A stretch of 64,000 nucleotides of DNA from Acidobacteriota bacterium (lineage in GTDB: Bacteria; Acidobacteriota; Vicinamibacteria; Fen-336): positions 1,861-65,860 of the forward strand of contig JAQBHI010000126.1 in NCBI GenBank assembly GCA_032127875.1, in the 5' to 3' direction. This document shows positions 3,663-24,297 of this stretch, one piece after another. Under the pieces are notes generated by a model that saw only the letters and a list, made by a program, of their open reading frames with translations, was not told where the DNA came from and did no database searches. A program made the translations under genes and the position numbers. Position 1 is the stretch's first letter. Each line of letters opens with the position of its first letter.

Positions 3663-3872
3663 CTACTCGACCTTGACGCGCCGGCCCTTGCGGGCTTCAG
3701 GGGCCGGGCGAGCTTCGTTGATGCGCTGGAGTTGCCACTGGCAAAGCAGGATCATGCCCTCGAGCACCTGGCGGCGTAGCTGCCGGGCTTTCCTGCGGTC
3801 GAGGCCCGCCTCCTCGAGGATCTCGGACAGCAGGCAGCACGCCTTCTTCGAGCGACTCTCATCGCGAGCCAT
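3663..3872 (-). CDS. small basic hypothetical protein (69 aa)
   Basis: ATG at 3870-3872 preceded by a strong SD (AAGGAGGaacATG) embedded in the last codons of the upstream ArsA gene, overlapping it by 14 nt. No recognisable domain. Confidence 0.4.
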   Translation of the reverse strand: MARDESRSKKACCLLSEILEEAGLDRRKARQLRRQVLEGMILLCQWQLQRINEARPAPEARKGRRVKVE

Positions 3873-5043
3873 GTTCCTCCTTGGTGCCAAACGCCACGCG
3901 CAGGCGCTGGCCCTCGAAAGCGGCGCCCAGCAGCCGGCGTGAAGCAAGCGTGCGCGGCAACGTGATGTTGCGGCGCTGGTTGTCGACCTGAACCACCAGG
4001 TCCTCGCCCCGGGTCCAGACTTCGATCTTGTCCTTCTCGGCGAAGGCCAGCTTCAGATACAAGGCGTAACCCTTGCCTTCCTTCTTGACCTCGAGCGGCT
4101 TTTCTTCGTAGAAGACCACTGTCGGGTCGTCGTCCCCGAAGACGTCGCGACCGAACTCCTCGAGCAGCTTCAAACCGACCATCTCCCGGTCGAATAGCCG
4201 GGCCGAGAGAAACGGCAACGGATCGAAGGCCTGGCGCGCGTCGGCGAGGTGTCCAGCCTGGATCGAGAACCAGCGGTCGAAGTAGCTCGAGCGAGCCTGT
4301 TCCGGCAGCACGCGGTTTGCGATCACGCAGTCGACGGGGAAGCCGAACAAGCCCAGGTACGTATGCAGGCGTTGCGACTCCTTGATCACCATTCGCTCGG
4401 GGTTGAGCACCAGGCGGATCGAGCTGGTCTTCGGGTCGCGCAGCAACGGTCCCATGCCTTCCATCTGCTGGTAGAGGGCCTTCACGGCGCCGAAGACCTC
4501 GTCCGAGGGCAACGGCATGTCGGTCATCCGCTGCGCCACCGGGCGCACCGAGCGCACCACCGTGCGCTGGATCGGGAAGATGCGCTGAAAATAGAAGTTC
4601 AGCATCTCGGGCACGCCGAGCATGCGCACGGTTTCGCCGGTCGGAGCGCAGTCGACGATGATCACGTCGTAGCTGCCGCTCTCGGCGTGGCGCTTGACGC
4701 GCAACAGGCTGAACAACTCCTCCATACCGGGCAGGATCGCCATCTCCTCGGCGACAGCGTCCTCCACGCCCTTGAAGGTCATGAAGCGCGTCAGCCAGTC
4801 GTGGATCACGCCCCAGTGGCTCGACAGCTCTTGGTTCACGTCGATCTCGAGCGCGTCGAGGTTCTTCGCGATGCGCACCGGCGCGGAGCCGGCCTCGACG
4901 TCGAAGGCGTCCGAGAGGCTGTGGGCCGAGTCCGTGGAGATCACGAGCGTGCGCTTTCCGAGCCGCGCCGAGAGCACCGCAGTGGCCGCGGACAGGCTCG
5001 TCTTGCCGACCCCGCCCTTGCCCGAGTACAACAAGATGCGCAT
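3859..5043 (-). CDS. ArsA/Get3-family ATPase with C-terminal HSP20-like (alpha-crystallin-like) domain
   Basis: Deviant Walker A MRILLYSGKGGVGKTS and ArsA signature DCAPTGETVRML. The C-terminal ~80 aa is ACD-like (GYALYLKLAFAEKDKIEVWTRGEDLVVQV...ITLP...FEGQRLRVAFG). Start fixed at ATG 5041-5043. Confidence 0.85.
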   Translation of the reverse strand: MRILLYSGKGGVGKTSLSAATAVLSARLGKRTLVISTDSAHSLSDAFDVEAGSAPVRIAKNLDALEIDVNQELSSHWGVIHDWLTRFMTFKGVEDAVAEEMAILPGMEELFSLLRVKRHAESGSYDVIIVDCAPTGETVRMLGVPEMLNFYFQRIFPIQRTVVRSVRPVAQRMTDMPLPSDEVFGAVKALYQQMEGMGPLLRDPKTSSIRLVLNPERMVIKESQRLHTYLGLFGFPVDCVIANRVLPEQARSSYFDRWFSIQAGHLADARQAFDPLPFLSARLFDREMVGLKLLEEFGRDVFGDDDPTVVFYEEKPLEVKKEGKGYALYLKLAFAEKDKIEVWTRGEDLVVQVDNQRRNITLPRTLASRRLLGAAFEGQRLRVAFGTKEEHGSR

Positions 5044-5045
5044 CG

Positions 5046-6212
5046 TCAGGAAACCCTGGCCCGTCGGCGCGGGCGGCCAGCGCTGGGTATCTCTCCGAAG
5101 ATCGCCGCGGCGACTTCGGCCAGGCCACGCAGGTCGTGCACGTCGGTCTCCAGCTCGGGAACCAGCACCGGGACCTGGCCGAGATCGACCTCGAGCCGTG
5201 CCAGGCTCTTGCGCTCCGCCCTGGCGACCAGGCGCTGTTCGCCCAACATGGCTACCAGCTTCTCGGTCAGCGACCTGGAGAGGGCAGGCGCCGGCCCACG
5301 GCCCGGCGCCGGAATGGCCTCGTCGGGATCGGGATGGAGGCGGTTCACGACCAGACCCACGAAGGGCATGCTCTTTTCCGCGAGGCGCCGGTGGAAATGC
5401 AGGGCCTCGTCGAGTGTGAGGCGCGCCGGGCTCGCCACCAGGACGAAGCCCGACGCAGGTTCTCGGAGCAGGGCGAAGACACGCGCCGCCCGCTCCTTGA
5501 AGCCATCGTACATGGCTTCGAAGGCGAGAAAGAACTCGGAGAGATCCTGCAGGAATTGGAGGCCGAGGTAGCGGTCCACGAGGCCGAGCACTGCCGCGCC
5601 GGTGCGGGTCGCGACCTTGAGCGTCAGGCGCCCTGCCGCGAAGTACGGCTTCAGGACGAAGCGCAAGATACTGGCGTCCAGGAAGCTCATCATGCGCTCC
5701 GGGGCCTCCAGGAAGTCGAGCGCATGACGCGTCGGCGGCGTGTCGAGGATCACCAGGTCGAAGCGCTCGTCCGCCGACAGCTCCAGCAGCTTCTCCATCG
5801 CCATGTATTCGTGCGTGCCAGCGAGCGCCGCCGACAGCTGTTGGTAGAAGCGGTTTTCCAGGATGCGCCGGCGTGCTTCGTCGCTGCTCGCAAAACGCTC
5901 TACGAGCGCATCGAAGGTGCCCTTCGTGTCGAGCGTCATCGCCCACATCTCGCCTCGGACCTTGAGGCCGAGGCGATGCAGCGGCAGCAGCCGCGGCTTC
6001 TGCGAGAGCTTGGAGAGGCCGAGGCTGGTGGCGAGGCGCCGCGACGGGTCGATGGTGCAGACGAGAACGCGACGGCCGAGCAGGGCCGCCCGGACCGACA
6101 AGGCGGCCGAGGTCGTCGTTTTGCCCACACCCCCCGCCCCGCACACGACGAGAATGCGGCGCTGCTCGAGGGCGGCGCCCAGACGCGCGGCGGCTCGCCG
6201 CTGCGCCCTCAC
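5046..6212 (-). CDS. ArsA/Get3-family ATPase (second paralogue)
   Basis: RILVVCGAGGVGKTT P-loop; DTPPTRHALDFLEAPE signature. GTG start at 6210-6212 overlaps the upstream TGA (GTGA). Confidence 0.8.
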   Translation of the reverse strand: MRAQRRAAARLGAALEQRRILVVCGAGGVGKTTTSAALSVRAALLGRRVLVCTIDPSRRLATSLGLSKLSQKPRLLPLHRLGLKVRGEMWAMTLDTKGTFDALVERFASSDEARRRILENRFYQQLSAALAGTHEYMAMEKLLELSADERFDLVILDTPPTRHALDFLEAPERMMSFLDASILRFVLKPYFAAGRLTLKVATRTGAAVLGLVDRYLGLQFLQDLSEFFLAFEAMYDGFKERAARVFALLREPASGFVLVASPARLTLDEALHFHRRLAEKSMPFVGLVVNRLHPDPDEAIPAPGRGPAPALSRSLTEKLVAMLGEQRLVARAERKSLARLEVDLGQVPVLVPELETDVHDLRGLAEVAAAIFGEIPSAGRPRRRARVS

Positions 6213-7213
6213 GCGGCCTCGAGGCGTTTCACGAGAAGGCGTAGGGCGTCCGGGCCGATCGGGTCCCCGAACAGGTAGGGCAGCGAGACCAGCGGGGCCT
6301 GGATGTCGCGCCGCAGGCGCTTTTCGAAGAACTGCGTCAGCTTGCGCCGGCGGATCTGGCGCCGGGCGGCGGCTAGTGCCGCGCCCAGATCGGCGTCGCG
6401 AGCGAGCCGGCCGCTGGCTCCCTGGGCGCACAGGCGCAACACGTCGGCTTCCTCTTCGTTCGTGAAACGGCGCTCATGGGCTGCATTCAGCACCGTCGCC
6501 GCGCAGCTGATGCCGAGCTCCTGCGTCGCGAGCCGGTAAAACCAGGCGGCCTCGACGGCGGCCATTTCCTCCGGGATCGCGACCACCACCAGCGCCGTTC
6601 GCCGCGCATCGCGCAACAGCGTGAGAATGCGCCGGGCATTCGCGCCGATTGGCCCGACGGGGACGGCCGCGGCCGCGGCCTGGGGCACTCTCAGGAACGA
6701 GAGGCCATGGCCGGTGGCCGGGGCGTCGACGATCACGAGGTCGAAGCGTGGCTTGCGCGACCAGCCTTGCGTCTGCTCCTCGAGCAGCATGATCTTGCCG
6801 AGGACCATCAGCTCCTTGAGGCCCGGCGCGGCCGCGAAGAAGCGGTGATAGATCGGGCTCGCGAGAACGCGCCGCGCCAGCGCTTCGATCTTCACGACAT
6901 GGCCGACGTATTCGTCCATCACGGCCTGGGGCCGGAGGTTGACCGTGAAGAGATTGGGTCGCGCCTGCGTGATCGAGCCGCCGGAATCGCTCGAGCCCAG
7001 GTAGCCTGCCGCCTCGCGGGGCGTATCGATTTCCACCAGCAGGGTGCGCTTGCCCCGCTCGGACGCCGCCAGCGCGAGCGCTGTGCCGGTGACGCTCTTG
7101 CCCACGCCGCCCTTGCCTGAGAGCACGAGCAGGCGCCTCTCGAAGAGCTGGTCGAGGATCACGCGGCTGGAGCCTAACATGCGGCGAATCGAATAGAATT
7201 CCGAGGCTTCCAT
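6209..7213 (-). CDS. ArsA/Get3-family ATPase (third paralogue, short form). True start may be the internal Met (MLGSS...) near 7180.
   Basis: LLVLSGKGGVGKS P-loop; DAPATGHGLSFLRVPQ signature. Confidence 0.8.
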   Translation of the reverse strand: MEASEFYSIRRMLGSSRVILDQLFERRLLVLSGKGGVGKSVTGTALALAASERGKRTLLVEIDTPREAAGYLGSSDSGGSITQARPNLFTVNLRPQAVMDEYVGHVVKIEALARRVLASPIYHRFFAAAPGLKELMVLGKIMLLEEQTQGWSRKPRFDLVIVDAPATGHGLSFLRVPQAAAAAVPVGPIGANARRILTLLRDARRTALVVVAIPEEMAAVEAAWFYRLATQELGISCAATVLNAAHERRFTNEEEADVLRLCAQGASGRLARDADLGAALAAARRQIRRRKLTQFFEKRLRRDIQAPLVSLPYLFGDPIGPDALRLLVKRLEAA

Positions 7214-7979
7214 GACCAGCCAGCTGCCCGCTGCGGCAAAGCAGAAGCCGCGCGTCGTGATCGTGATGCCGGCCTACAACGCGGCCAAGACGCTCGAGGA
7301 CACGTTCCGGGCGATCCCCGCCGGGTATTACGACGAGATCGTCGTCGTGGACGACCACAGCCGCGATGACACCACCGGACTCGCCGAGCGTCTCAACCTC
7401 AAGGCGATCCGCCACCCGCACAATGTCGGCTACGGTGGCAACCAGAAGACCTGCTACATGGAGGCGCTGCGCGACGGCGCCGAGATCGTGATCATGCTCC
7501 ACCCCGACGGCCAGTACGACCCGACGATCCTTCCCGAGATGGTCAAGCCGATCGCGGAAGGCCGGGCCGAGATGGTGCTCGGCTCACGCATGCTGACCCC
7601 CGGCGGCGCCAAGCGCGGCGGCATGCCGCTGTGGAAGCGCATCGCCAACCGCTGCCTCACGAGCCTCGAGAACCTGGCGATGGGCCAGAGGTTCAGCGAG
7701 TGCCACACGGGGTATCGGGCGTACAGCCGGCGCTTCCTGGAGACCGTGCCGTTCCTGCGCAATTCGAATGGCTTCGTGTTCGACACCGAGGTCATCTTCC
7801 AGGCCGTGCACTTCGGGCTGCCGGTCGTCGAGGTGCCGGTCTCGACCCGTTATTTCGACGATGCCTCGTCGGTCGGCTTCCGGGCGGGCGTCGTCTACGG
7901 TCTGGGCACGTTGTGGACGGCCACCCGCTTCCTGCTCCACCGAGCCGGGCTCGTCGAGTCCCCGAAGTTTCGGCGCTAG
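7212..7979 (+). CDS. glycosyltransferase family 2 (GtrB / dolichol-phosphate mannosyltransferase-like)
   Basis: N-terminal GT-A fold motifs (VVIVMPAYNAAKTL...EIVVVDDHSRDDT...MLHPDGQYDP). The ATG overlaps the ATG of the divergent ArsA ORF (CATG). Confidence 0.8.
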   Translation: MTSQLPAAAKQKPRVVIVMPAYNAAKTLEDTFRAIPAGYYDEIVVVDDHSRDDTTGLAERLNLKAIRHPHNVGYGGNQKTCYMEALRDGAEIVIMLHPDGQYDPTILPEMVKPIAEGRAEMVLGSRMLTPGGAKRGGMPLWKRIANRCLTSLENLAMGQRFSECHTGYRAYSRRFLETVPFLRNSNGFVFDTEVIFQAVHFGLPVVEVPVSTRYFDDASSVGFRAGVVYGLGTLWTATRFLLHRAGLVESPKFRR

Positions 7980-8205
7980 GCGCCGCTCAGTCCCTCGAAT
8001 GCCGGCTTTGGCCGTGCCACGAACCATCTCGTTCAAGCGGAACATCACCTGCGCGCGAGCGCCGCCACCCATGCGCCGGTAGCTCTCGATTTGAACCGCG
8101 TCAGCGTCCGGGCTCGTGTCCGCGGCGATCGGCATGCGGTAGCTTGGCACTCGGGCTCCAGGGCGCCCTTTGAGCCCGTCCCGCCATGGCGGCTCCTGTC
8201 CGAGC

Positions 8206-9888
8206 TCAGCGTCCAGCGACGAAGAAGTGGCCCGCGTTCTGGGCGTAGAGCCGGCCCTCGGCATCGATCGAGAGTGGCGTGTAGGCAGAGCCCAGAGGCC
8301 GTTCCAGGAATACGCTCCTGCGCAGCGTCCCGTCCGAACGGATCGCGTAGAGAAAGCCGTCCTCCGCGATCCCGAAGACGTCGCCATTGCGATCGAGCGC
8401 GGGGGCGTTGATGCACCATTCGAAGCCATTCGGATTGAGAAAATGCCAGTCGGGTGCGAGCGTGTCGCCGCGCAGCTGTGTCACGAAGTACTGGCCCTCG
8501 AGCGGATCGGTGGCGCAGCTTCCGCAGTAGGAGCCGACGCCGCCGTAGTGGTTGTCCTTGACCACGATGCTGTAGCCGGCGCCGGTCGCGCGCACCGCCG
8601 GAGTAGTGTCCCAGCCGAAGTCGTAGGCCGCCAGATAGCGACCGTTCGCGTCGAACTTCATCAGATGGCCGCGGGAATAGTTGTAGCGTGAGAACGCGCC
8701 GTAGAGGATGCTGCCGTCGGGTGCCACCACGGGTGAGGAGGACGAGAGGTCGGTCACTTCGCCGTCGCCGAGGCGGTTCGTCAGTGGGTTGACGCCGAGG
8801 CGGGAGCCGCTGCGGCAGCCGCCTGCTGCGCCGTTCGGCGGCAGCACACCTCCGCCCGAAGCCGGCACGCCGCAGCCGTCGGCGAAGCGCTCGCGCAGGG
8901 TCGATGTGAAGCGCGGCGACAGGTCGGCGTTCACGGCGACCAGGGAGCCGTAGCGGGCGTTGAAGTGCGCGCGGCTCACCGTGTACACCGTCCCGTCGTG
9001 CCCGATCACCGGCCCCACGTTGACGCCCGGCCGCTGAGAACCGCAGGCGGCGCTCGGCGGCGTCGCGTCGGCACTTGGGGGCCAGGGCAGCGGCTCGGTC
9101 GTGAAGCTGGTCAGGCACTCTGCGCGAGCGCCCGGCGCTCCGCTGACGATGTCGGCGTAACGGGCGAGGCTGGCACGCCCATCGCTCGTTACCCGCACGA
9201 GCCAGGCGTCCTGTACATCGCGCCGCCAGGGGTCGGCGGGATCGAGCCGCAGGGCGTTGTAGTAGATCTCGCCATTCGCTGTGGCGGCGAGTGGTCCGGA
9301 AGCGAAAATCCGGGGATCCAGCGAGGCGCCGAACGGATTGATGCGCGTGACCAACGAACCGTCGTTCACGTCGAGCTTGATGAGCGTCCCAGCGGCGCCG
9401 GGAACGTACAGGAATCCACCGGCGAGGGCGCCCTGATTCACGGGTTCCCAGCGCAGCACGCCGCCGGGAGGCACGGGCTTCCAGTCCGAGCGATAGTTCC
9501 AGATTTCGCTCAGGCTTCCGTTCTGCCAGTGCAGGCGCTTCCAGTTCCACTCCTGCGAGGCCCAGTTGTCCGGGCCCGTGTACGTGCCGGACTTCGTCAT
9601 CAGGAACACGTCGTCGCCCGAGGCCAGCGGCACCGGGTAGTGGACGAGTAGCGCCCCGCGGCCCGAGGTCTGGATCTCCTGTGGCACGAACGGATCGACG
9701 ACCGTCTCGAAGAGCAGGCGGTCCGGGCTCTGGGCAACGACATCGAGGGTGCCCGTGTGTTGCGGGTTCTGGCCCCATTGCGGCCAGGCCACAGGACCCG
9801 AGACGGGGGGCGTCCCGGCGCTCTCGTTTCCGCCACAGGAGGGCATCAGCAGAAGGCAAAGGACGCCGATCGGGGCTCGGGTGTTCAT
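8206..9888 (-). CDS. secreted hypothetical protein (signal peptide; W/Y/N/D/G-rich, beta-propeller-like composition)
   Basis: Start at MNTRAPIGVLCLLLMPSCGG. Composition is typical of exported proteins. The competing ORF 8045-9859 on the same strand is R-rich junk. Confidence 0.55.
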   Translation of the reverse strand: MNTRAPIGVLCLLLMPSCGGNESAGTPPVSGPVAWPQWGQNPQHTGTLDVVAQSPDRLLFETVVDPFVPQEIQTSGRGALLVHYPVPLASGDDVFLMTKSGTYTGPDNWASQEWNWKRLHWQNGSLSEIWNYRSDWKPVPPGGVLRWEPVNQGALAGGFLYVPGAAGTLIKLDVNDGSLVTRINPFGASLDPRIFASGPLAATANGEIYYNALRLDPADPWRRDVQDAWLVRVTSDGRASLARYADIVSGAPGARAECLTSFTTEPLPWPPSADATPPSAACGSQRPGVNVGPVIGHDGTVYTVSRAHFNARYGSLVAVNADLSPRFTSTLRERFADGCGVPASGGGVLPPNGAAGGCRSGSRLGVNPLTNRLGDGEVTDLSSSSPVVAPDGSILYGAFSRYNYSRGHLMKFDANGRYLAAYDFGWDTTPAVRATGAGYSIVVKDNHYGGVGSYCGSCATDPLEGQYFVTQLRGDTLAPDWHFLNPNGFEWCINAPALDRNGDVFGIAEDGFLYAIRSDGTLRRSVFLERPLGSAYTPLSIDAEGRLYAQNAGHFFVAGR

Positions 9889-10052
9889 GGCGGGAAAGCG
9901 TACCTCATCCGGGGGAGTTGATTGAACAGGCCGGATATTCATCTTGTTGATCGCCGAGCGATGAAGTGTGCCGGCTCTCGTGAACCAGTGCTGGACAGTC
10001 GGAGGCAACTCTGCTCGAATAGGCGAATAAAAGGCGAAACATCAGAAAAACC

Positions 10053-13000
10053 GTGTACGTCGAGCTCCATGCCGCTTCGGCCTTCTCGTTCCTGCGCGCT
10101 GCGTCCCTGCCTGAAGAGCTCGTGGCGCGCGCGGCGGAGCTGGGCTATCCAAGCCTGGCACTCGTCGATCGCGACGGCATCTCGGGCGCGCCGCGTTTCT
10201 TCAAGGCCGCGAAGGCCGCGGGCATCCGGCCGATCGTGGGCGCCGAGTTGAGCCTGCGCGGCGGGGGCGCGCTGCCGCTCGTCGTCGAGAGCCGAGAGGG
10301 CTACCAGAACCTGTGCCGGCTCATCACGCGCATGAAGGCCGGCGTGCCGAAAGGCACGGGGACGCTCGAGCTTACGGCCCTGGAAGGCAACGTCGCCGGC
10401 CTCGTGGCGTTGCCGGGAGTCGGGGCGCTGGGCCACCCGCCCGACACCGATCGGCTCGCGCATCTGCTTGCGGCTTTCGGCCCACGCAGCGTGGCGATCG
10501 AGGTGCAACGGCATCGCCGCCGCGAACAGGAGGCCAGGAACCGGGCGCTGCTCGACATGGCAGACAGCCTCGGCCTTCAAGCCGTCGCGACGAACGGCGT
10601 GCGGCATGCGCTCTCGCAGGGGCGGGCGCTGCTGGACGTGCTCACCTGCATCCGCGAGAAGCGGACGCTGGCCACGGCCGGGCGCCTGCTGGCCGACAAC
10701 GCCGAGCGCCAGCTGAAGGCGCCGCAGGCGATCGAGGCGCTCTTCCGCGATCGCCCCGAACTGCTGCGCAACGTGGCGGCGCTCGCCGAGCGCCTCAGCT
10801 TCACGCTCGACGATCTTGGCTACCGCTTCCCCGAGTACCCGGTGCCGGCGGGGGAGACGATGCAGTCGCACCTGGCGCAGGCGACCGACGCCGGCGCTCG
10901 CGAACGTTACCGGCCGTACCACGAGAAGGCCCGCCGCCAGATCGAGCGCGAGCTGGCGTTGATCGGCAAGCTGGAGCTGGCCGGCTACTTCCTCATCGTC
11001 TGGGACCTCGTGAACTTCTGCCGGCGAGAAGGGATTCTCGTTCAGGGTCGCGGCTCGGCGGCGAACAGCGCCGTCTGCTACAGCCTCGGCATCACGGCCG
11101 TGGACCCCGTCGGCATGGAGCTGCTCTTCGAGCGTTTCCTGTCCGAGGAGCGCGGCGAGTGGCCCGACATCGACCTCGACCTGCCCAGCGGCGGCAAGCG
11201 CGAGCGCGTGATCCAGTACGTCTACGAGCGCTACGGCGAGCGCGGCGCGGCGATGACCGCCAACGTCATCACCTATCGCGACCGCAGCGCCTCGCGCGAG
11301 ATCGGCAAGGCGCTCGGCATCCCGCTCACGGAGATCGAGCAGCTCGCGCGTTACATGCGCCGCTTCGAGTTCGTGGACCCGGACGACACGCTCGCGAAGC
11401 GGCTGCGCGAAGCGGGCTTCGACACGGGCGACTCGCGCATCCGGCTGTTCGCACGGCTGTGGGGCGAGATCCAGGACCTGCCGCGGCACCTGGGCCAGCA
11501 CTCGGGCGGGATGGTGATCGCACAGGGCGCCCTCGACAGCGTAGTGCCGCTGGAGCCGGCCTCGATGCCGAGCCGGGTGATCGTGCAATGGGACAAGGAG
11601 GACTGCGCCGACTTGGGGATCATCAAGGTCGACCTGCTCGGCCTCGGGATGCTGGCGGCCCTCGAGGACTGCATCTCGATGTTGCGTGGGCGCGGCGTCG
11701 AAGTGGACCTTGCGCACCTGCCGCAGGACGACCCGAAGGTCTATGCGATGCTGCGGGAGGCCGACACCGTTGGCCTGTTCCAGGTCGAGAGCCGCGCCCA
11801 GATGGCGACGCTGCCGCGCCTGAAGCCCGAGCGCTTCTACGACCTCGTGGTCGAAGTCGCGATCATCCGGCCGGGACCGATCGTGGGCAAGATGGTCCAC
11901 CCGTACCTGGACCGGCGCGCCGGGCGCGAGGGGGTCCGCTATCCGCATCCGTCGCTTGAGCCGATCCTCGCCCGCACGCTGGGCGTGCCACTGTTCCAGG
12001 AGCAGCTGCTGCGCATGGCGATGACGGCGGCCGGCTTCACCGGCGGCGAGGCCGAGGAGCTGCGCCGGGCCATGGGTTTCAAGCGCTCGCAGAAGCGGAT
12101 GGCCTCGATCGAGGCGCGGTTGCGCGCGGGCATGCTGCGGAACGGCATCACGGGCGAGGCCCAGGAGCAGATCGTGCGCTCCATCGCCTCGTTCGCGCTG
12201 TACGGGTTTCCCGAGTCCCACGCCGCGAGCTTCGCACTCATCGCCTATGCCAGCGCCTACCTGAAGGCCTACCATCCGGCGGCCTTCGTGGCGTCGCTGC
12301 TCAACAACCAGCCGATGGGCTTCTACCATCCGACGACGCTCGTGAAGGACGCGCAGCGCCACGGAGTGCGCTTCGAAGCGGTGGACGTGACGCGAAGCGA
12401 CTGGGACGCGACACTCACGGACGGCGGCGTGCGTCTCGGGCTGGGTTGTGTCGCGGGCCTGCGCCGCGAGGCGGGGGAGCGGATCGTCGTCGAGCGCGCA
12501 GGCGCAGCGTTCGCATCGCTGCAGGATTTCGTCGACCGCGCCTCGCTGCGCCAGGACGAGTTGCGGATCCTCGCCGAGATCGGCGCGCTCAACGCCTTCG
12601 GACTGACTCGGCGGAGTGCCTTGTGGCAGGTGGAGCGCGCGGCGCGCCCGCGCGGGCCGCTGCTACGCGACGTTCCCGAGGTGCTCGATGACTCACCGCT
12701 GCCGGAGATGACGTTTCCCGAGCGCCTGACCCGGGATCTTCGCGGCACGGGGCTCACGGCCGGCCCGCACCCGATGCTGCTCTATCGCGAATCGCTGGTG
12801 GCGCGCGGCGTGAGGCGCGCGGTCGAGTTGTCGCGGCTCGAGGACGGTGCGCGTGTGAGCGTGGCAGGCGCCGTGATCTGCCGGCAGCGGCCCGGTACAG
12901 CCAAGGGCTTCCTGTTTCTGACGCTCGAAGACGAGACCGGCCTCGCCAACGTGACGGTGCGTCCCGACCTGTTCCAGCGGGCGAAAGGCGTTCTGGTGAA

Positions 13001-16886: not shown

Positions 16887-17408
16887 CTAGAACGTCCTGG
16901 CGAGGTCGAGGGCGCTCTTGACGTCGATACGTTTGAAGGACAGACCGTTCTTCGGGTCGGTGATCGGGGCGCCGGTGCTCTTGAGGGCCGCCTCGATCTG
17001 GCCCGGCGAGAGGTCAGGCCGGGCCTGGAGCAGCAGGGCCGCGGCACCGGCAGCATGCGGGCTTGCCTGGGACGTCCCGAGGAAGGTCGAGGTCCCGCCC
17101 CCGCGTCCCGCTGCGCTGATCGCGGCGCCCGGCGCCAGCGTGCCCTGCATCAGCGTCGCGAAAGAGAGCCGAGCCTGAACCGAGGTGTAGAGGAGCCCCG
17201 TGGCCGTGTTCAGGACGGCCGCGACGATGTAGACGTAGGGCAAGGCCTCCGAGCCGAAGTGCGCGAGGAACAAGGCACTCGCGGCGGTCTCGAAGAACAC
17301 CGTGGCGAGGCCCATCGCGAAAGAGTGCCCGAGCATGAGCGAGGCGGACTGGCGCTCGCCGGGCTCGACACCCAGGGCCAGAGCCACTCGCCCTGCCAGC
17401 GAAGCCAT
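16887..17408 (-). pseudogene. chimeric remnant ORF: N-terminal ~85 aa paralogous to the N-terminus of the adjacent translocase, fused in frame to the C-terminal ~88 aa of a subtilisin-like (S8) peptidase
   Basis: N-terminal part aligns to gene 14051-16780 (ER..A....LFG.LAGH.LLET...ALFLA). C-terminal part is GTSQASPHAAGAAALLLQARPDLSPGQIEAALKSTGAPI, the subtilase catalytic-Ser region. Junction near 17150. Confidence 0.5.
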
Positions 17409-17484
17409 TTCGACCTCGTGACGAAGGTGCGACGACGCCTCCCGCAGGCGCCGGCGAGAGACTATACGCGATAGAATCGCGGCG

Positions 17485-19368
17485 ATGGCGGCAAGTGCGA
17501 AGCGCGCGGCAGCGGCCGACGCGGATCCGGATTTCTCCCCGAGCCGCTACATAGCGCGGATCAGCCTGGACACCGGCAAGGAGATGCCCGGTCCGATCGA
17601 CCCCGAGGAGTTGCTGGTGCACGCCCACCGCGACCGGCATCCGGTCGAGGTGGCCGCGCAGTTCGTGGCGAACCGCGTCGTCGGGCTGACCGGCAAGGAA
17701 GCCGTCGTGCGTCGCGGCCTGAAGGCCTTCAACACGCTGGGTCGATGGCTCGTGAGCGGCGTGGGGGCCGCCTCGGGCAGCCGCGCCGTTGCGGAGCGGG
17801 CGAAGCGGCTGATCGGCGTCGTCGATCCCGGATTCGCCTTCCGCTTTCGCGAGCCGACGCACCTCTCCGACCGGCAGCTTCGGGAACGGGTGAGGAAGCT
17901 GCAGGGCGATGCGGCCGTGCGCCTCAAGGCGCGGGGTCGGAACCCGCGGCTCCGGATCCTCATGACGGGCGCCACCGGCTTCGTCGGCAAGGAGATCCTC
18001 AGCCAGGTCGCTTCGGACCGGCGCGTGGCGGAGCTGGTCGCGGTGCTGCGCCCCGAAACGCTCCGCGATCTGAAGACGAAACAGGTCCTGAAGGTGCTCT
18101 CGCCGGCGGAGCGTGGGGCGCTGCTCCTGAAACGGCTGCGTATCACCGGGACCCGCGCGCAGCGCTTCCGCTTCGTGGCCGGCGACATCGAGAAGCCCAA
18201 CCTCGGCATCGCGGCCGGCGAGATCGCCCGGCTCCGCAAGACGCTCACGCACGTGATTCATTGCGCCGCGAGCGTTTCCTTCGACGACCCCTACGAAAGC
18301 TCGTTCCGAGCCAACGTGCTCGGTTCCCTGAACGCGCTGCGCTTCTCGCTGCAGATCCAGCAAACGCCCGGCTCCGCCTTTCTCCACCACGTCGCGATCG
18401 AGACCTCCTACATCCACGGCCGGAAGAAGCGTTCGATCGCCCAGGAGCGCGCGCTGGTCTTCCCGCGGCACTTCTACAACAACTTCTACGAGCTCACAAA
18501 GGCGATGGCCTCGATCGAGACCGACCGCTTCCTCGTGGCGCGAGGCTTGCGAGTCGTGCAGCTCTTGCCTTCGATCGTGATCGGCGAGGCCCGCACCGGG
18601 AACAACCGCGGCGACCTGAAGGTCGTGAACGCGCCGATCAACGCCTTCGGCCGCGCCAAGGAGGCGGTGGATCGCTCGCACGGGGATCTGCTGGGCATGC
18701 CGAAGGCGCGCGTCATCGCTGCGCTCGCCTGTGTCTTTCCGGGCGACCCGAGCGCGGAGATGAACCTGGTCCCGGTCGACCGCGTCGCCGCCGGGATCCT
18801 GGCGGCGCTCGGCGTGAGCGCGGCCATCGGCGTGCGCATCCACCTCGCCACCGACAACCGGATTCCCTCCGAGGACATGCTACGCATCGTCCACGAAGAG
18901 CTCGGCGTGCAGGTGCGGCTGGCCGACCCCACGCTGTATCGCAACCTGACGATGCCGCTCGTGAAGACCGTCTTGGAACGCGTCGGCGAGCCCAGGCTGG
19001 GGGCGGCCCTGGAGCGGCTCTCGACGATCTTCGGCGCCTACGGGGAATGGGGTCAACCCGTCCACGAAGTCGGCAACGACGTGCGTCTGCTGGGCCTTGC
19101 GCTGCGGCGGCCCGACACGCGCCACGCCTTCCGCATGCTGTGCCGTCACAACCGCTACGTCCAGGAATACGGACGCGTGCGCGACGCCGACGAAGTCGCG
19201 CGCCGGGAGCATGCCTGGGAAGAGGCGATCGACGCCATCGAGCACCGGACCGGGCGCCAGGCGTCGGCGATCCCGGCGGGGGAGTTCAGGGAGCTGCTCG
19301 TCGAGGAGATCGACCTCAAGGGTTTCGAGCGACGTCAGCCAGTACGCAAACGCGGAGGCGACGAATGA
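17485..19368 (+). CDS. thioester-reductase-domain / fatty acyl-CoA reductase-like SDR protein (male-sterility NAD-binding family) with ~150-aa N-terminal extension
   Basis: RLRILMTGATGFVGKEIL Rossmann motif followed by a TR-domain-like region. 627 aa. Confidence 0.75.
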   Translation: MAASAKRAAAADADPDFSPSRYIARISLDTGKEMPGPIDPEELLVHAHRDRHPVEVAAQFVANRVVGLTGKEAVVRRGLKAFNTLGRWLVSGVGAASGSRAVAERAKRLIGVVDPGFAFRFREPTHLSDRQLRERVRKLQGDAAVRLKARGRNPRLRILMTGATGFVGKEILSQVASDRRVAELVAVLRPETLRDLKTKQVLKVLSPAERGALLLKRLRITGTRAQRFRFVAGDIEKPNLGIAAGEIARLRKTLTHVIHCAASVSFDDPYESSFRANVLGSLNALRFSLQIQQTPGSAFLHHVAIETSYIHGRKKRSIAQERALVFPRHFYNNFYELTKAMASIETDRFLVARGLRVVQLLPSIVIGEARTGNNRGDLKVVNAPINAFGRAKEAVDRSHGDLLGMPKARVIAALACVFPGDPSAEMNLVPVDRVAAGILAALGVSAAIGVRIHLATDNRIPSEDMLRIVHEELGVQVRLADPTLYRNLTMPLVKTVLERVGEPRLGAALERLSTIFGAYGEWGQPVHEVGNDVRLLGLALRRPDTRHAFRMLCRHNRYVQEYGRVRDADEVARREHAWEEAIDAIEHRTGRQASAIPAGEFRELLVEEIDLKGFERRQPVRKRGGDE

Positions 19369-19664
19369 GGGAAGAAGAAACGATCTTCGAGCGGCTGAAG
19401 ATGCGCGGCGAGGAGATGTTCCAGCAGGTGTCCGGCGAGCTGATGAACAACCCACGTTTCGTGGCCGCGATGCGCTCGGCGCTGCGCGGCAAGGAGAAAC
19501 TCGACGAAGCCTCGGCGCGTGCCCTGAAGGCCATGAACGTGCCGACGCGGAGCGAGTTCAAGAAAGCACTTCGCCGGATCGAGACGCTCGAGGCGGAGCT
19601 GGCCGCGCTCAAGGCCAGCAGCAAGCCGGCGTCGAAGCGGCGCCAGGCGAAGAAGGCGCGCTAG
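19366..19664 (+). CDS. phasin-family (PHA-granule-associated-like) small protein, 99 aa
   Basis: ATG overlaps the upstream stop (ATGA). ...NVPTRSEFKKALRRIETLEAELAALKA... resembles a phasin C-terminus. It appears in the track only as the tail of a different-frame ORF. Confidence 0.6.
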
Positions 19665-19670
19665 CTTTCA

Positions 19671-20650
19671 TGCGCCGGCTGGCTGTCACGGGCGCCGGAT
19701 CCTTCCTGGGCGGCAGACTGTTGCGGCGGCTGATCGAGACGCGCGGCGCCGACAAGCTCGTGGTGATCGACATCGCCGCTCCGCCCGCGACGCTCGAGGT
19801 CCGGCACCACGAGATCGACTTCACGCAGCCTGCCTCGGATGAGCGCTTGTTGCAGGTGCTGCGCGAGGAGCAAGTGGACAGCGTCGTGCATTTCGCCTTC
19901 TTCACGAACCCGCGCCGCGACAAGAGCTACGCCCACGAGCTGGAATCGATCGGCACCTTGAAGCTGATGGCCGCGGCGGCTGCCGCAGGCGTGTCCCGCG
20001 TCGTGCTCCGCTCGTTCACTGCCGTATACGGGGCGCGCGGCCAGAATCCGAATTTCCTGACCGAGGAGCGCCCGCTGCAGCCGAATTCCGCGCTGGCCTG
20101 GGCGCGCGACAAGTTCGAGGCGGAGCAGCACGCGGCCTCATTCGCGCGGCGCTATCCCGAGATGGCGATCAGCGTGCTGCGCTTCGCGCCGCTGTTCGGG
20201 CCTGGCGTTCGGAACTTTTATACGCGCATCTTCGACAACCGCGTCGTGCCGACGCTGATGGGCTTCGACCCGCTCGTGCAACTGCTGCATCCCGACGACG
20301 CCTTGGATGCCGCCGAGGCGGCCCTGGAACGGGGGGTGGCCGGCGCCTTCAACATCGTCCCGCGAAGCGCGATTCCGCTCGCCTCGATCCTGCACCTGGG
20401 CGCCAAGGTTCCGCTTCCGGTGCCGCACCCGCTCGCGTACGCGCTGTCCGACGCGCTGTGGGCGGCGGGTCTGGCCGAGGCCCCCGGTGCGTTCCTCGAC
20501 TACGTGCGCTATCTGTGCGTCGCCGATGGCGCGCGGGCGGAGCGCGAGCTGGGCTTCCGGCCGCGTTACAGCAGCCGCGATGCCCTGCTCGCCTATCTGC
20601 GCTACCGGCATCCCGAGCCGGCTCCAGGGACGGCGGAGGCCACCGCGTGA
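19671..20650 (+). CDS. NAD-dependent epimerase/dehydratase family protein (SDR)
   Basis: MRRLAVTGAGSFLGGRL Rossmann N-terminus. 326 aa. Confidence 0.75.
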
Positions 20651-21666
20651 AGGCCTCGGCAAAGGTGGTGTCGATCCGTAGCGGCAGGCAGAGCTCAGAG
20701 GCCGAGAGCTTGCGAGAAAAGGTGCGGGCTCTCGAAGACGAGCTGCGGCAGCTCGCGCAGAAGCAAGGCGTCGTCGACCGGGAAGGCGCGCTGGTGGCGA
20801 TCGCGCGGATATTCCAGGCGGGCACCAAGGGCCTTTCCTGGGAAAACCTGGCGCGCGCGCTGGCCGCCTGGCATTTCTCCTGGCACTCGGAGGAGGTCGA
20901 CGCTTTCGGCTTCGACAAGAAGTTCATGGAGACGCTGCGGCCGATGTTCGAGTTCCTGTACACGGTGTGGTGGCGCGTCGAGGCCAGCGGTGTCGAGAAC
21001 GTGCCGAGCCAGGGCGCCGCTCTGATCGTCGCCAATCATTCGGGCGTGCTGCCCTACGACGGCCTGATGATCAACATCGCGGTGCGCCACAAGCATCCGG
21101 CCCGCCGCGAGTGCCGGATGCTGGCGCTCGACATGTTCGCGCTGCTGCCGTTCCTGGCGCCGCTGCTTTCCAGGAGCGGCGCCGTGCGGGCCAATCAGGA
21201 GAACGCCGAGCGGCTGCTGCGCGGCGGCGCGCTGGCCGGAGTATTCCCCGAGGGTGTCAAGGGAGTCGGCAAGCGCTTCAAGGACCGCTACAAGCTGGCG
21301 CGCTTCGGCCGGGGCGGTTTCGTGCGCCTCGCGCTGCGCACCGGCGCGCCGATCATTCCCTGCGCCGTGGTGGGCGGCGAGGAGATCCATCCGGTGCTCG
21401 CAAAGGCCGACTGGATCGGCCGGCCGTTCGGTCTCCCGTACTTTCCGATCACGCCCACCTTTCCGCTGCTGGGACCGCTCGGCGTCGTGCCGCTGCCGAC
21501 GAAATGGAGCCTGGATTTTGCGGACCCGTTGTCCGTGGCGAAGTACGGGCCCGAGGCCGCCGACGATCCGATTCTCGTCAATCGGCTGGCAGAGCAGGTG
21601 CGCGGGACGATTCAGCGCATGATCGACGGGCGTCTCGCGAGACGCCGCTCGATCTGGGTCGGGTAG
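20647..21666 (+). CDS. lysophospholipid / 1-acyl-sn-glycerol-3-phosphate acyltransferase (PlsC family) with N-terminal coiled-coil extension
   Basis: HX4D motif region (ALIVANHSGVLPYDG) and FPEG-type motif (GVFPEGVKG). GTG start overlaps the upstream TGA. Confidence 0.75.
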   Translation: MKASAKVVSIRSGRQSSEAESLREKVRALEDELRQLAQKQGVVDREGALVAIARIFQAGTKGLSWENLARALAAWHFSWHSEEVDAFGFDKKFMETLRPMFEFLYTVWWRVEASGVENVPSQGAALIVANHSGVLPYDGLMINIAVRHKHPARRECRMLALDMFALLPFLAPLLSRSGAVRANQENAERLLRGGALAGVFPEGVKGVGKRFKDRYKLARFGRGGFVRLALRTGAPIIPCAVVGGEEIHPVLAKADWIGRPFGLPYFPITPTFPLLGPLGVVPLPTKWSLDFADPLSVAKYGPEAADDPILVNRLAEQVRGTIQRMIDGRLARRRSIWVG

Positions 21667-21728
21667 CACCGGCGGCGCCCTGCTGGACATGTGAGGGTCC
21701 GGCAAGGCCCACTGCCTAACTCCAGCGC

Positions 21729-22916
21729 TTACCTGAGCTTCCTTTCCAGCATCTCCAGCGAGCCGGAGAGGGCGCGGCCGACCAGGGAGCGCTGCGGCTG
21801 GCGTGCCGGGATGGGGGGCACCGCGGCGGGATCGCCCAGCCGAATGCCGTGGCGCTTGAGGACGCGCGCATAGGCTGCATGGTTCTTCTGGAAGCCTTGC
21901 AGCACGGAACGATAGCCGTCCTCGGCCACGACCTTGCGCGCGCTCATGCGCATGATGTTGTAGGCGAACATGCGCATGTCGTCGCGGGTGGGTTCGATCA
22001 GCAGGATGTCCACTTCGGGATGCTCGGCCTGGTAGCGCTCGAGACCGTATTGCATGCGGCCGTGGAGCATGATGCGCAGCGCCTGGTCGAGGACGTAGTT
22101 GAGGCCCTTGTTGCTGAGGTGGCCGTGCAGGGGGCCTTTCGGCCCCACGTTGAGGATCGGCACGATCGGGTTGATGCAGATCACCAGATTCGCGCCGTGG
22201 CGGATCGCCAGGTTGATGTGAGCGGTCTTCTTGACGCCGCCGTCGACGTAGTCGCGGCCGCCGATGCGCACCGGGCGGTACAGTCCCGGCAGCGCCGTCG
22301 AGGCCTGGACGGCTCGCGAGATCGGCACGTTGCGGTGACCCTTGTCGCCGAAGGCCACCGCTTCTCCTGAATCAAGATCGACGCCGACTACGAACAGCGC
22401 CCGGGCGAGTTCGTCGAACCGGTCGCTCTGGCCGCGCGAGGTGAAGACGGCCTGCAGGAACTCCTGGATGCCCGAATTGTCGAGCAGGCCGGCAGGCAGC
22501 AGTTCCAGCATCGAGAACACAAAGTCCGAGAGGTTGCGCCCCGGCTCGCGGAGGGCCGTGCTGAGCGCCTCGCGCACGACGCGGGGCGCCTGCATCGAGC
22601 CCCGCGCCAGGTCGGAGAGTCCGAGCCTGAACAGCGGCGCCGACGACATTCCGAAGGGGGAGCGAGACGCGACCTCGTCGTACATCTCGCGCGGCGCGAT
22701 GCCATTGGCGAGCAGCGACGAGACAAAGGCGCCACCGCTGACCCCGACGTAGAGGTCGAGGTCGAGGACGCTGCGCCCCAGGATCCCTTCCAGGGCGCGC
22801 AGGCAGCCGATCTCGTAGACCGCTCCGGTGACGCCGCCGCCGGCGCAGACGAGGGCGATCTTGCTGGGTTTCCCGCGTGAGCGTCTCGCCTGCACCTTGT
22901 GTCCGGCCAAGCCCAC
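21729..22916 (-). CDS. patatin-like phospholipase
   Basis: Oxyanion GGG motif (LVCAGGGVTG) and GVSGG nucleophile motif (YVGVSGGAF). Confidence 0.8.
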   Translation of the reverse strand: MGLAGHKVQARRSRGKPSKIALVCAGGGVTGAVYEIGCLRALEGILGRSVLDLDLYVGVSGGAFVSSLLANGIAPREMYDEVASRSPFGMSSAPLFRLGLSDLARGSMQAPRVVREALSTALREPGRNLSDFVFSMLELLPAGLLDNSGIQEFLQAVFTSRGQSDRFDELARALFVVGVDLDSGEAVAFGDKGHRNVPISRAVQASTALPGLYRPVRIGGRDYVDGGVKKTAHINLAIRHGANLVICINPIVPILNVGPKGPLHGHLSNKGLNYVLDQALRIMLHGRMQYGLERYQAEHPEVDILLIEPTRDDMRMFAYNIMRMSARKVVAEDGYRSVLQGFQKNHAAYARVLKRHGIRLGDPAAVPPIPARQPQRSLVGRALSGSLEMLERKLR

Positions 22917-22951
22917 CTCCGTTGTCGCGGCGCGAGTCTACGCGAGGCGGC

Positions 22952-23389
22952 CTACTTGCGGCGCTTGAGCGCGTCGATCTTGCGGGAGAGCTCTTCGACT
23001 TTGCGCGTGAGCTCCGCGATCTCGCGCCGGCTCGGGATGTTGAGCGATGCCAGGGTGTGCTGCACGGCCTGGCCGACGCGCTTGCCCGCGGACGCGCGCT
23101 CCTTCTGGATGCGGGCCTGGAGCGCCTTCAACTGGGCGTCGAGACGCTTGCCCGCCTTCTTGCGCTCGCGTTCGAAGCGACCCTGGAGATCCGCTACGAT
23201 TCGGGCCGCCTCTTTGCCGCTGAGCTTGTTCTTTTTCAGCAGTCGCCGCACTTGCTTCTCGGCCTGCTGCTCGACCGAGACCACGGCCTCGACCGCTTGC
23301 TGCCAGGCGCCGCGCGCCACCTCGGCGGCAGTGCGGCCCGTCGTCGTAGCCTCGGCCTTCAGCTTCTTCTTCGTGTTCTTCTTCGCCAT
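22952..23389 (-). CDS. phasin family protein
   Basis: K/A/E-rich helical protein with C-terminal ...ASLNIPSRREIAELTRKVEELSRKIDALK, typical of TIGR01837-type phasins. Confidence 0.7.
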   Translation of the reverse strand: MAKKNTKKKLKAEATTTGRTAAEVARGAWQQAVEAVVSVEQQAEKQVRRLLKKNKLSGKEAARIVADLQGRFERERKKAGKRLDAQLKALQARIQKERASAGKRVGQAVQHTLASLNIPSRREIAELTRKVEELSRKIDALKRRK

Positions 23390-24030
23390 TACTTTCTCCT
23401 TTTTCGTTTCTTGCCTCGGCGCACCGGCTGCTTCCTGGGCGCAGGGCCCGGCGCGGCCAGGTACGTCTCGAGGGTCATCAGTCGTTCCCTGAGCGAGTGC
23501 AGCGAGAGGCTGACTCCGCCCTCGCGTTCGCTGCGCTCCAGCAGGCTGTGGAGCGCCTGTTCCAGACCCCGCTGTGCGTCGGCCACGACGCTTTGCACGG
23601 AGTGTGCGATCTCCTGCCGCAGGCCAAGTGCCTCTTCGAAGGACAAGAGTTGACGCGACAGGAGGCCGGAAACGATGCGCTCGGCCTCCTCGCGCGCCCG
23701 GACCGCGACGCTCGGCTGTGGCGCTGCCGGCTTCCCCGGGATCGGGGCGGCGGTGAAGCGCACCAGCCGCGCCAGCACCTGCCGCGGGATGCTCGCGGTG
23801 CGTTCCTTGACGCCTTCGAGTACGACCTGGGCGAGCACCAGGTTCGTGATGTCCTCGCCCGTCTGCTGGTCCTGCACCAGGATCTCGTCGCCTGAGGCGA
23901 CGCGCGCGGCGAGGTCCTCGAGCGTCACATGGCGCTTGGCCGCCGGATCGTACAGCTTGCGGTTGGCATAGCGCTTGACGACCCGGGGGCGGAGTGCTGC
24001 TTGCCTTGCCACGACACCAATATAACGCAC
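23389..24030 (-). CDS. phaR: PhaR-like polyhydroxyalkanoate synthesis repressor
   Basis: N-terminal VKRYANRKLYDPAAKRHVTLEDLA...GDEILVQDQQTGEDITNLVLAQVVLE matches the PhaR N-terminal DNA-binding domain pattern (IKKYPNRRLYDT...ITLEDL). The TAA stop overlaps the phasin ATG (TAATG). Confidence 0.75.
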   Translation of the reverse strand: MRYIGVVARQAALRPRVVKRYANRKLYDPAAKRHVTLEDLAARVASGDEILVQDQQTGEDITNLVLAQVVLEGVKERTASIPRQVLARLVRFTAAPIPGKPAAPQPSVAVRAREEAERIVSGLLSRQLLSFEEALGLRQEIAHSVQSVVADAQRGLEQALHSLLERSEREGGVSLSLHSLRERLMTLETYLAAPGPAPRKQPVRRGKKRKRRK

Positions 24031-24066
24031 TGCGTCATGGATGTCAACAGTCCATGACGCGAGGCG

Positions 24067-24297
24067 TCAGGAGGCGGGCGTCGCGTCCAGGTCGAGGGCG
24101 AGGGGCGCGTCCTCGCCGAGCCGGCGTCGGCGCAGCGCCCGGCGGATCAGGATCCCGCCCAGCACCACGCCGCACAGTGCGGCGATGGCGGCACACAACG
24201 CCGCGAGGCCCAGCGAGTTGATCAGTACGCCGGCCAGATCGAAGACGGGCTTCTCGACCTTGACCCAGGTGATGGTTTCGGTCACGGCCTCGTTCAC
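24067..24297 (-). CDS. small membrane protein (76 aa, one TM helix)
   Basis: Hydrophobic stretch LINSLGLAALCAAIAALCGVVLGGILI followed by RRALRRRR. Confidence 0.3.
   Translation of the reverse strand: MNEAVTETITWVKVEKPVFDLAGVLINSLGLAALCAAIAALCGVVLGGILIRRALRRRRLGEDAPLALDLDATPAS

Follow-up and report, generated by a model that had tools for sequence, protein, structure and literature searches.

The autoregulatory PhaR/PhaP circuit of the polyhydroxybutyrate producers Cupriavidus, Paracoccus and Sinorhizobium (AniA/PhaR), in which the gene of a PHB_acc_N-domain regulator is coupled to a phasin gene, is the closest described counterpart of the regulatory part of the locus reported here. Pseudomonas uses the phasins PhaF and PhaI (PF05597); PhaF consists of a helical part, a zipper motif and a basic tail, and PhaF-type phasins bind DNA via their Lys/Arg-rich tails. 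On the side of lipid synthesis, wax esters are made by a fatty acyl-CoA reductase (FAR) together with a wax-ester synthase/diacylglycerol acyltransferase (WS/DGAT) in Acinetobacter and Marinobacter, and by FAR together with AWAT, of the DGAT2 family, in mammals. Myxococcus carries an elbB-elbE cluster whose ElbD protein combines adenylation, carrier, reductase and acyltransferase domains. Finally, the actinobacterial lipid-droplet proteins (Rhodococcus MLDS with its regulator MLDSR, TadA, and mycobacterial HBHA) follow the logic of a small basic helical droplet protein encoded with a droplet-associated regulator. Here we describe a seven-gene locus of an Acidobacteriota bacterium, located in a stretch of 64,000 nucleotides (hereafter the window; contig JAQBHI010000126.1 of assembly GCA_032127875.1), which shares this last logic although no sequence relationship to the actinobacterial proteins is expected, its parts belonging to the PhaR and phasin families. 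Four tightly packed plus-strand genes encode a reductase (RED), a small phasin-motif protein (S99), a protein resembling extended short-chain dehydrogenases/reductases (SDR) and an acyltransferase; convergent to them on the minus strand lie the genes of a patatin-like lipase, a phasin (PHAS) and a PhaR-type regulator (PHAR). Gene content, conservation, operator and promoter architecture, and fusions of RED relatives to WS/DGAT were established in silico, whereas the chemical product, the surface bound by the PhaR and phasin proteins and any functional link between the modules are inferred.

Genes were called by a method based on G+C content at third codon positions (GC3) together with a list of open reading frames (ORFs), and domains were assigned by Pfam and NCBIfam scans. 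RED matched Pfam NAD_binding_4 with 104 bits (E 9e-30), and its motifs T161-G-A-T-G-F-V-G-K-E (TGxxGxxG) and Y335xxxK339 were invariant in 12 diverse relatives. Among solved structures in the PDB, RED is closest to the reductase domain of MxaA, to carboxylic acid reductase (CAR) and to a fatty acyl-CoA reductase. Judged by these intact motifs, RED is a thioester/fatty-acyl reductase, and it shares the NAD_binding_4/thioester-reductase class with the reductases of wax-ester pathways. It differs from them in its own N- and C-terminal regions (~150 and ~230 aa), which are conserved and unique to the family, and in the 'Sterile' C-terminal domain, which the Pfam scan did not detect in RED. An AlphaFold model built on a 12-sequence alignment was poor (mean predicted local distance difference test score, pLDDT, 50). 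The family is small: an exhaustive search of 1.84 billion cluster representatives gave only 90 at E<1e-30, and among the matches listed many cover just a short part of the protein.

The best full-length relatives of RED proved to be bifunctional in architecture. Four proteins of 1038-1137 aa (P0242, P0243, P0245 and P0248), 46-52% identical to RED over its residues ~18-614, carry a complete C-terminal WS/DGAT (PF03007 + PF06974) with an intact HHxxxDG motif. P0242 corresponds to MCC7385741.1 from a metagenome-assembled genome (MAG) labelled 'Deltaproteobacteria', P0243 was found in an assembly labelled TARA and in a metagenome of marine origin, and P0245 and P0248 come from two other assemblies. 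The closest relatives of RED beyond Acidobacteriota are, in other words, natural fusions to an intact wax-ester synthase/DGAT. Since its relatives are fused in this way, RED would supply fatty aldehyde or fatty alcohol to ester synthesis; this indirect evidence is the strongest that we have for its function, and it supports a role of the RED family in fatty-alcohol, wax-ester or neutral-lipid synthesis. No description of these fusions or of the reductase family was found in the literature searched. The four fusion genes (loci L084-L089) had no phasin- or PhaR-like neighbours, and the small ORFs adjacent to them were unrelated.

To follow the locus across genomes, one genome per species was scanned with an alignment of RED, 80 loci were kept together with at most 10 kb of sequence to either side, and their gene content was compared by tblastn with the window proteins. 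RED, S99, SDR and acyltransferase genes occurred in that order in ~30 Vicinamibacteria-type loci; the exceptions were two loci with an unrelated gene after RED and one in which S99 was missing. After this operon, a block running from patatin through PHAS, PHAR and a 76-aa protein to an amidase and FtsK was found on the opposite strand in ~20 loci.

The initial annotation had called two phasins. PHAS passed the Pfam Phasin cut-off (PF05597, 36.7 bits against 28.8) and missed that of TIGR01837 (30.4 against 94.7), and it was kept downstream of the PhaR-like gene in 18 loci. S99 remained below both cut-offs (21.5 bits for PF05597 and 19.1 for TIGR01837, with 22 bits for the PhaE C-terminus) and matched only the last ~40 positions of the PF05597 model. 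All 27 S99 orthologues examined nevertheless matched PF05597 at E<=0.01 (best 1.9e-7), and hhalign aligned the S99 family with the PHAS family through a C-terminal motif of 42 residues, (M/L)N(I/V)P(T/S)RxE...L..(K/R)(I/V)E.L, at 96.5% probability (E 8.9e-10). In S99, a helical part is followed by this zipper-like motif and then by a Lys/Arg/Ala/Pro-rich tail of variable length, an architecture that resembles PhaF; PHAS is Lys-rich at its N-terminus and PHAR is Lys/Arg-rich at its C-terminus. As in the Pseudomonas proteins and the PhaE C-terminus, S99 and PHAS carry the zipper-like motif at the C-terminal end, but both are much shorter than PhaF and lie away from genes for medium-chain-length PHA. 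S99 was present in ~31 loci, every time between RED and SDR, and it is the only direct molecular link between the RED operon and the PHAR-PHAS module.

PHAR matched PHB_acc_N (PF07879) with 73.5 bits, well above the cut-off of 25, and this domain was found in 17/17 family members. The PHB_acc domain (PF05233) was absent from PHAR and from 17 relatives even at E<=1, and the score against TIGR01848 (64.1 bits) fell below the equivalog cut-off of 109.45. The PhaR identity given in the initial annotation is retained for the N-terminal domain, but it does not extend to the full-length protein; together with the basic C-terminal tail, these are the features in which the regulator departs from that of the PhaR/PhaP circuit. 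Two further observations concern the relationship of PHAR to phasins. The central part of PHAR (residues ~96-165) showed a weak hhalign similarity to the N-terminal half of PHAS (47% probability, E 1.9e-4), which hints at a phasin-like sensor part and on which we do not rely. In one long-read MAG (locus L010, 17142-18161, minus strand) a single uninterrupted ORF of 339 codons spans the PhaR-like and the phasin gene, owing either to a natural fusion of regulator and phasin or to an error of sequencing.

The PHAR-PHAS unit is preceded by a near-consensus sigma-70-type promoter. Promoter-type sites in this region numbered 2, compared with 0.3 expected from shuffled sequences, and the -35 and -10 boxes were kept in 19 loci. 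In the same 19 loci, two 17-bp palindromes with the consensus ATnACGC-N3-GCGTnAT are conserved at the PHAR promoter, 30-33 bp (mostly 32 bp) apart, and the proximal one was kept in all of them. In Sinorhizobium meliloti, the PhaR motif was defined by MEME and confirmed by electrophoretic mobility shift assay (EMSA) and mutation, and the phaP1 and phaP2 promoters carry two palindromes flanking the -35 box (PMC12542648). The Sinorhizobium core YGCRNYGCR fits 31/37 of our sites, among them 19/19 proximal sites, and the palindromes of the locus likewise have AT-rich arms and are present in two copies flanking the -35 box. Because the conserved operators fit both the Sinorhizobium PhaR core and its two-site layout, PHAR very probably represses its own transcription unit, PHAR-PHAS, in the manner of PhaR. 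The initial annotation had proposed a check for PhaR boxes upstream of the phasin and reductase genes. It is positive at the phasin promoter, with the two conserved palindromes, and negative at the reductase gene: the best matrix scores in the regions upstream of RED stayed at background level.

These scores come from a position weight matrix (PWM), which we built from the PHAR-promoter sites and used to scan 1.3 Mb of sequence (the window and the loci) with a threshold of 14 bits. Of 43 matches at or above the threshold, 35 lay at PHAR promoters, a circular result as these sites are the source of the matrix. The other eight recurred ~1.9-3.4 kb downstream of RED in Thermoanaerobaculia-type loci. 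A near-identical PhaR-box-like 17-mer, TTCACGCG(G/T/C)CGCGTCAT, is found in L014, L019, L033, L034, L036, L040 and L053, and in L019, for which alone the gene calls were compared, it falls within a gene matching Rieske proteins. We considered this 17-mer as an operator and rejected it; given its similar offset and its position inside the Rieske gene of L019, it probably reflects coding conservation.

The position of the promoter also bears on translation starts. The longest PHAR ORF begins at 24030, which falls inside the promoter, and for this reason the start is probably the GTG at 24012. In most of the 19 loci the start codon of PHAR (GTG or ATG) lies ~6 nt after the -10 box, suggesting a leaderless mRNA. 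Start codons located 6-7 nt after -10-like boxes were seen at both PHAR and RED, which points to mRNAs with a very short leader, or none, in this lineage. Upstream of RED the box takes the form (TG)nTAGAATC in most Vicinamibacteria loci, and in many orthologous loci TAGACT or a close variant precedes the patatin gene, often with a GC-rich hairpin between it and the end of the phasin gene. Within the window, 4/5 TAGAAT/TAGACT hexamers sit 13-24 nt before gene starts, which argues that they are a general promoter element and no specific operator. The similarity between the regions upstream of RED and of the patatin gene (CGCG-TAGAMTC-CGCG), which could have been a shared operator, is best explained in the same way.

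The enzymes encoded around RED were examined for their catalytic motifs. The acyltransferase matched Pfam Acyltransferase (PF01553; 67.7 bits, E 1.2e-18) and, weakly, the DGAT2-family model DAGAT (PF03982; 19.7 bits). Its blocks NHSGVLP[YW]DG and VFPEGVKG were invariant in 30/30 orthologues, and in the His block, NHSGVLP[YW]D, His and Asp are seven residues apart compared with five in HX4D. Its sole relative in the PDB was Thermotoga PlsC (5KYM, E 1.3e-5), and a search of the PDB with the family profile returned noise only. The acyltransferase could be the esterifying enzyme; it resembles the wax-ester pathway in its DGAT2-family signal but is of the PlsC/LPLAT type, not a WS/DGAT. The SDR-like protein had been annotated as an epimerase, and an Epimerase domain is indeed present (73.3 bits, E 2.6e-20), but in 30/30 orthologues the position of the catalytic Tyr is occupied by Trp (W144xxxK148), so the catalytic triad is incomplete, and the glycine motif is degenerate (TGxxSxxG). 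As the catalytic Tyr is lacking, a simple aldehyde-reductase role is doubtful and an accessory or binding subunit is likelier. The patatin-like protein (PF01734; 84.4 bits, E 1.5e-23) has a GGG oxyanion loop and GVSGG and DGG dyad motifs that were invariant in its orthologues. An anti-phage role for it was considered and discarded, since PADLOC returned only weak generic phospholipase matches without defence partner genes.

Another part of the comparison concerned the genes of PHA synthesis, which the initial annotation had reported as missing from the vicinity. Scans of called genes of at least 100 aa revealed no PhaC, thiolase, PhaB/acetoacetyl-CoA reductase or WS/DGAT in the 64-kb window, where the single α/β-hydrolase of class-III-PhaC size is MetX. 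A tblastn search of the window and the 80 related loci with PhaC gave no match below E 2.5; the query was a Cupriavidus sequence validated against PDB 5HZ2 (907 bits). The absence of phaC, phaA and phaB was thus confirmed by domain scans across the window and, for PhaC, by tblastn in the other loci. In this the locus is unlike the PhaR/PhaP circuit, and it differs further in that its neighbours are lipid enzymes and in a host lineage for which the one available study detected no PHA (PMC8100337). In that study, Raman analysis of Vicinamibacteraceae cells showed glycogen and polyphosphate but gave no PHA signal, and the 50 Acidobacteriota MAGs considered, only one of them from Vicinamibacteria, had incomplete PHA pathways. 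Our literature search on Vicinamibacteria with phaC, ether lipids or wax esters returned nothing relevant.

Taken together, we tentatively favour, at not quite an even chance, a reading in which two separately transcribed modules probably serve one hydrophobic storage inclusion, and this inclusion is neutral lipid (wax ester or acylglycerol) rather than PHA. That PhaR and phasin proteins have been re-used in Vicinamibacteria to build and sense wax-ester or neutral-lipid bodies, made by an uncharacterised fatty-acyl reductase family and a PlsC/DGAT2-like acyltransferase, is a possibility to which we attach low confidence. In such a system, RED would convert a fatty acyl thioester to the aldehyde or alcohol, the acyltransferase would esterify this product, and the SDR-like protein would act as an accessory or binding subunit rather than as an aldehyde reductase. 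S99 would behave as a mini PhaF-like protein that coats or organises the product. PHAR would bind the two palindromes, which bracket the -35 box and overlap the -10 box of its own leaderless promoter, and shut off both its own gene and the co-transcribed PHAS; by analogy with PhaR, the appearance of a hydrophobic surface would titrate PHAR away and release phasin synthesis. The patatin-like lipase, probably expressed from its own -10 box, would mobilise the store.

Several of our results weigh against this neutral-lipid reading, or against treating the locus as a single system. The C-terminal half of PHAR is unlike the PHB (polyhydroxybutyrate)-binding part of canonical PhaR, and the "epimerase" lacks its catalytic tyrosine. 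In the matrix scan, no PhaR-type box was detected upstream of RED, S99, SDR, acyltransferase or patatin genes in any locus. There is no WS/DGAT near the RED operon, since the WS/DGAT part of P0242 found no tblastn match in the window or in loci L001-L083. The RED proteins of Vicinamibacteria, Thermoanaerobaculia and Holophagales MAGs share 61-87% identity, which is unusually high between classes for a storage-lipid enzyme and would fit a housekeeping membrane-lipid role too, and in MAGs labelled Thermoanaerobaculia and Holophagales (62-67% identity) RED occurs alone. The interval between acyltransferase and patatin holds unrelated genes in several genomes (ABC transporter components, a penicillin-amidase-like gene, short-chain dehydrogenases), with gaps of up to ~6.7 kb, and in three loci a search of the sequence available beyond the acyltransferase gene did not reveal the patatin-PHAS-PHAR genes: L004, which is the closest relative and whose contig stops after ~3.3 kb, and L056 and L079, with ~7.6 kb each. 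Moreover, both modules sit in a syntenic backbone, with TLC and cyclic-nucleotide (cNMP) genes on one side and amidase-FtsK on the other, and adjacency within such a conserved backbone is weak evidence for function.

Part of this pattern would be expected of an ordinary PHA system in which PHAR, PHAS and the patatin serve PHB/PHA granules, the synthase is encoded elsewhere and the reductase operon is an unrelated neighbour. Three of the parts (PhaR DNA-binding domain, PF05597 phasin and PhaR-type operator) come from families that are known from no context other than PHA, and patatin-like proteins have been reported on the PHB granules of Ralstonia eutropha; the two modules have no operator in common, and their adjacency is broken or absent in several genomes of a region that is broadly syntenic anyway. 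We nonetheless regard such a system, the main rival of the neutral-lipid reading, as somewhat unlikely, given the lack of PhaC in the window and in 80 loci, the second phasin-motif protein inside the reductase operon, the regulator without PHB_acc in 17/17 members, and the missing Raman signal and incomplete pathways cited above. It is rather improbable that the operon instead makes membrane lipids, with a separate role for PhaR and phasin: either alkylglycerol ether lipids, by a disaggregated Elb-like or acyl-dihydroxyacetone-phosphate-like route using the reductase, the acyltransferase and the SDR as keto-reductase, or an envelope lipid derived from fatty alcohol. The housekeeping-like conservation of RED and of the acyltransferase (65-88% identity) agrees with this, the pairing of the two functions mirrors the C-terminal half of ElbD, and Elb-like clusters have been reported in MAGs of subdivision 6 Acidobacteriota (bioRxiv 10.64898/2026.06.23.733905). 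Unlike in Myxococcus, however, reductase and acyltransferase are separate genes, and ElbD-type AMP-binding or PP-binding domains were absent from RED and the neighbouring genes, as were AMP-binding, carrier or AGPS-type domains from RED and every scanned window gene. The SDR lacks the catalytic Tyr, the fusion partner of the nearest outgroup relatives of RED is WS/DGAT, which belongs to neutral-lipid and not to ether-lipid synthesis, and a phasin-motif protein would be unexpected in an operon for membrane-lipid synthesis.

A very improbable explanation is that the small basic coiled-coil proteins (PHAS, S99 and the PhaR-like one) are associated with the nucleoid or with cell division and co-expressed with RNase J, FtsK and the amidase, and that the lipid connection is coincidental. 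The genes of RNase J, FtsK, AMIN-amidase, the 76-aa protein, PHAR, PHAS and patatin do run in one direction with overlaps of 1-4 bp or short gaps, and all three small proteins have Lys/Arg-rich tails of the kind that binds DNA in PhaF-type phasins. Yet the strong, conserved promoter and operators of PHAR mark a separate transcription unit, S99 belongs to the reductase operon outside the division string, and the phasin and PhaR domain matches are specific. The interpretation given in the initial annotation is supported in part. Of the proposed direction towards neutral or ether lipids or wax esters, the wax-ester/neutral-lipid part is backed by the RED-WS/DGAT fusions and by S99 in the operon, whereas the ether-lipid part is opposed by the lack of adenylation, carrier and AGPS domains. 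As for a lipid-body system regulated by PhaR and phasin, the PhaR-type circuit is present at PHAR-PHAS but has no box at the reductase operon, and a single PhaR-controlled lipid-body system is not shown. The locus is best described, inferentially, as a plausible and uncharacterised variant that links PhaR and phasin to neutral lipid; as the initial annotation had supposed, no paper describing the arrangement or the reductase family was found in the literature searched.

The coordinates of the locus are collected in Table 1. The seven genes, their order and their overlaps agree with the initial annotation, and the junctions could be read directly in the sequence as cgaATGAggg (ATGA overlap of RED and S99, by which S99 is translationally coupled to RED), gcGTGAagg (GTGA overlap of SDR and acyltransferase) and GTAATGG (TAATG overlap of PHAR and PHAS).

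Table 1. Genes and control elements of the seven-gene locus (positions in the 64-kb window)
Feature	Position	Strand	Basis or remark
RED, thioester/fatty-acyl reductase, 627 aa	17485-19368	+	GC3-based gene call, ORF list
S99, phasin-motif protein with Lys/Arg-rich tail, 99 aa	19365-19664	+	Gene call, ORF list
Atypical extended-SDR-like protein, 326 aa	19670-20650	+	Pfam Epimerase
PlsC/LPLAT-family acyltransferase, 339 aa	20647-21666	+	Pfam Acyltransferase
Patatin-like lipase/phospholipase, 393-395 aa	21729-22916	-	Pfam Patatin
PHAS, phasin (PF05597 type) with Lys-rich N-terminus, 145 aa	22952-23389	-	Pfam Phasin
PHAR, PhaR-type regulator, 207 aa from GTG 24012	23389-24012 (longest ORF to 24030)	-	PHB_acc_N
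Sigma-70-type promoter TTGACA-17-TATATT of the PHAR-PHAS unit, near-consensus	24019-24047	-	11/12 positions matched
Proximal PhaR-type operator ATGACGCAGTGCGTTAT, palindrome	24022-24038		Between -35 and -10, overlaps -10; PWM 27.7 bits
Distal PhaR-type operator CTGACGCCTCGCGTCAT	24054-24070		Upstream of -35, 32 bp from proximal box; PWM 18.7 bits
-10-like box TAGAAT, 7 nt before RED ATG (short or no leader)	17472-17477	+	Conserved upstream of RED
-10-like box TAGACT in PHAS-patatin spacer, possible patatin promoter	22935-22940	-	TAGACT or close variant in many orthologous loci

Two ORFs flank the locus. Between the AMIN-amidase gene and PHAR (24067-24297, minus strand) lies the 76-aa protein, a single-pass membrane protein without family match; its position is kept in most Vicinamibacteria loci and its stop codon overlaps the distal PhaR box. 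Divergent from RED, with its start 77 bp upstream of it, an ORF at 16887-17408 (minus strand) has an N-terminus like the start of the adjacent TLC/MFS-HEAT transporter and a C-terminal part that matches only a Ser-box fragment of subtilase (PF00082, residues 92-139), and has the look of a chimera or of the remnant of a gene. In Thermoanaerobaculia and Holophagales MAGs, the stand-alone RED adjoins glycogen phosphorylase or cytochrome bc genes. In L065, L067 and L070 (~6900-11800) a STAS-domain gene and glycogen phosphorylase precede it on its own strand, with intervals of 58-212 nt, and there it may be tied to the turnover of a carbon store.

Outside the seven-gene locus, the window (66-71% G+C) contains housekeeping or unrelated genes. 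These encode DnaE, three ArsA-like ATPases, glycosyltransferases, a TLC/HEAT transporter, a cNMP-binding protein, RNase J, FtsK, AMIN-amidase, glycogen synthase, thioredoxin, urocanase, histidine ammonia-lyase, MetX, peptidases and transporters. The three ArsA/Get3-like ATPase genes stand in a row (3859-7180, minus strand), one of them with an HSP20-like domain, and glycosyltransferase genes adjoin them. The initial annotation had drawn a parallel to the developmental lipid bodies of myxobacteria, which the host does not support. The close relatives of RED come without exception from MAGs of Acidobacteriota, those with a named source being Vicinamibacteria, and a gene near the locus matched the acidobacterial VWFA model TIGR03436; the host is a member of Vicinamibacteria (Acidobacteriota), and a myxobacterium is excluded.

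PhaR and phasins are textbook markers of PHA granules and are used by genome surveys to infer PHA storage. In this locus, proteins that are otherwise known solely from the granules of bioplastic stores may act on bodies of wax ester or fat. If Vicinamibacteria do form neutral-lipid inclusions of this kind, such annotations would be misleading for a large and poorly cultured share of the soil microbiome, and the system would be the first in which PhaR and phasin have a client other than polyhydroxyalkanoate. Of interest, too, is the RED family, an uncharacterised group of ~600 aa reductases that is fused to WS/DGAT in marine and other MAGs. Vicinamibacteria are a globally abundant soil class, and a new route of carbon storage in oligotrophic soil Acidobacteria would emerge if the reading holds.

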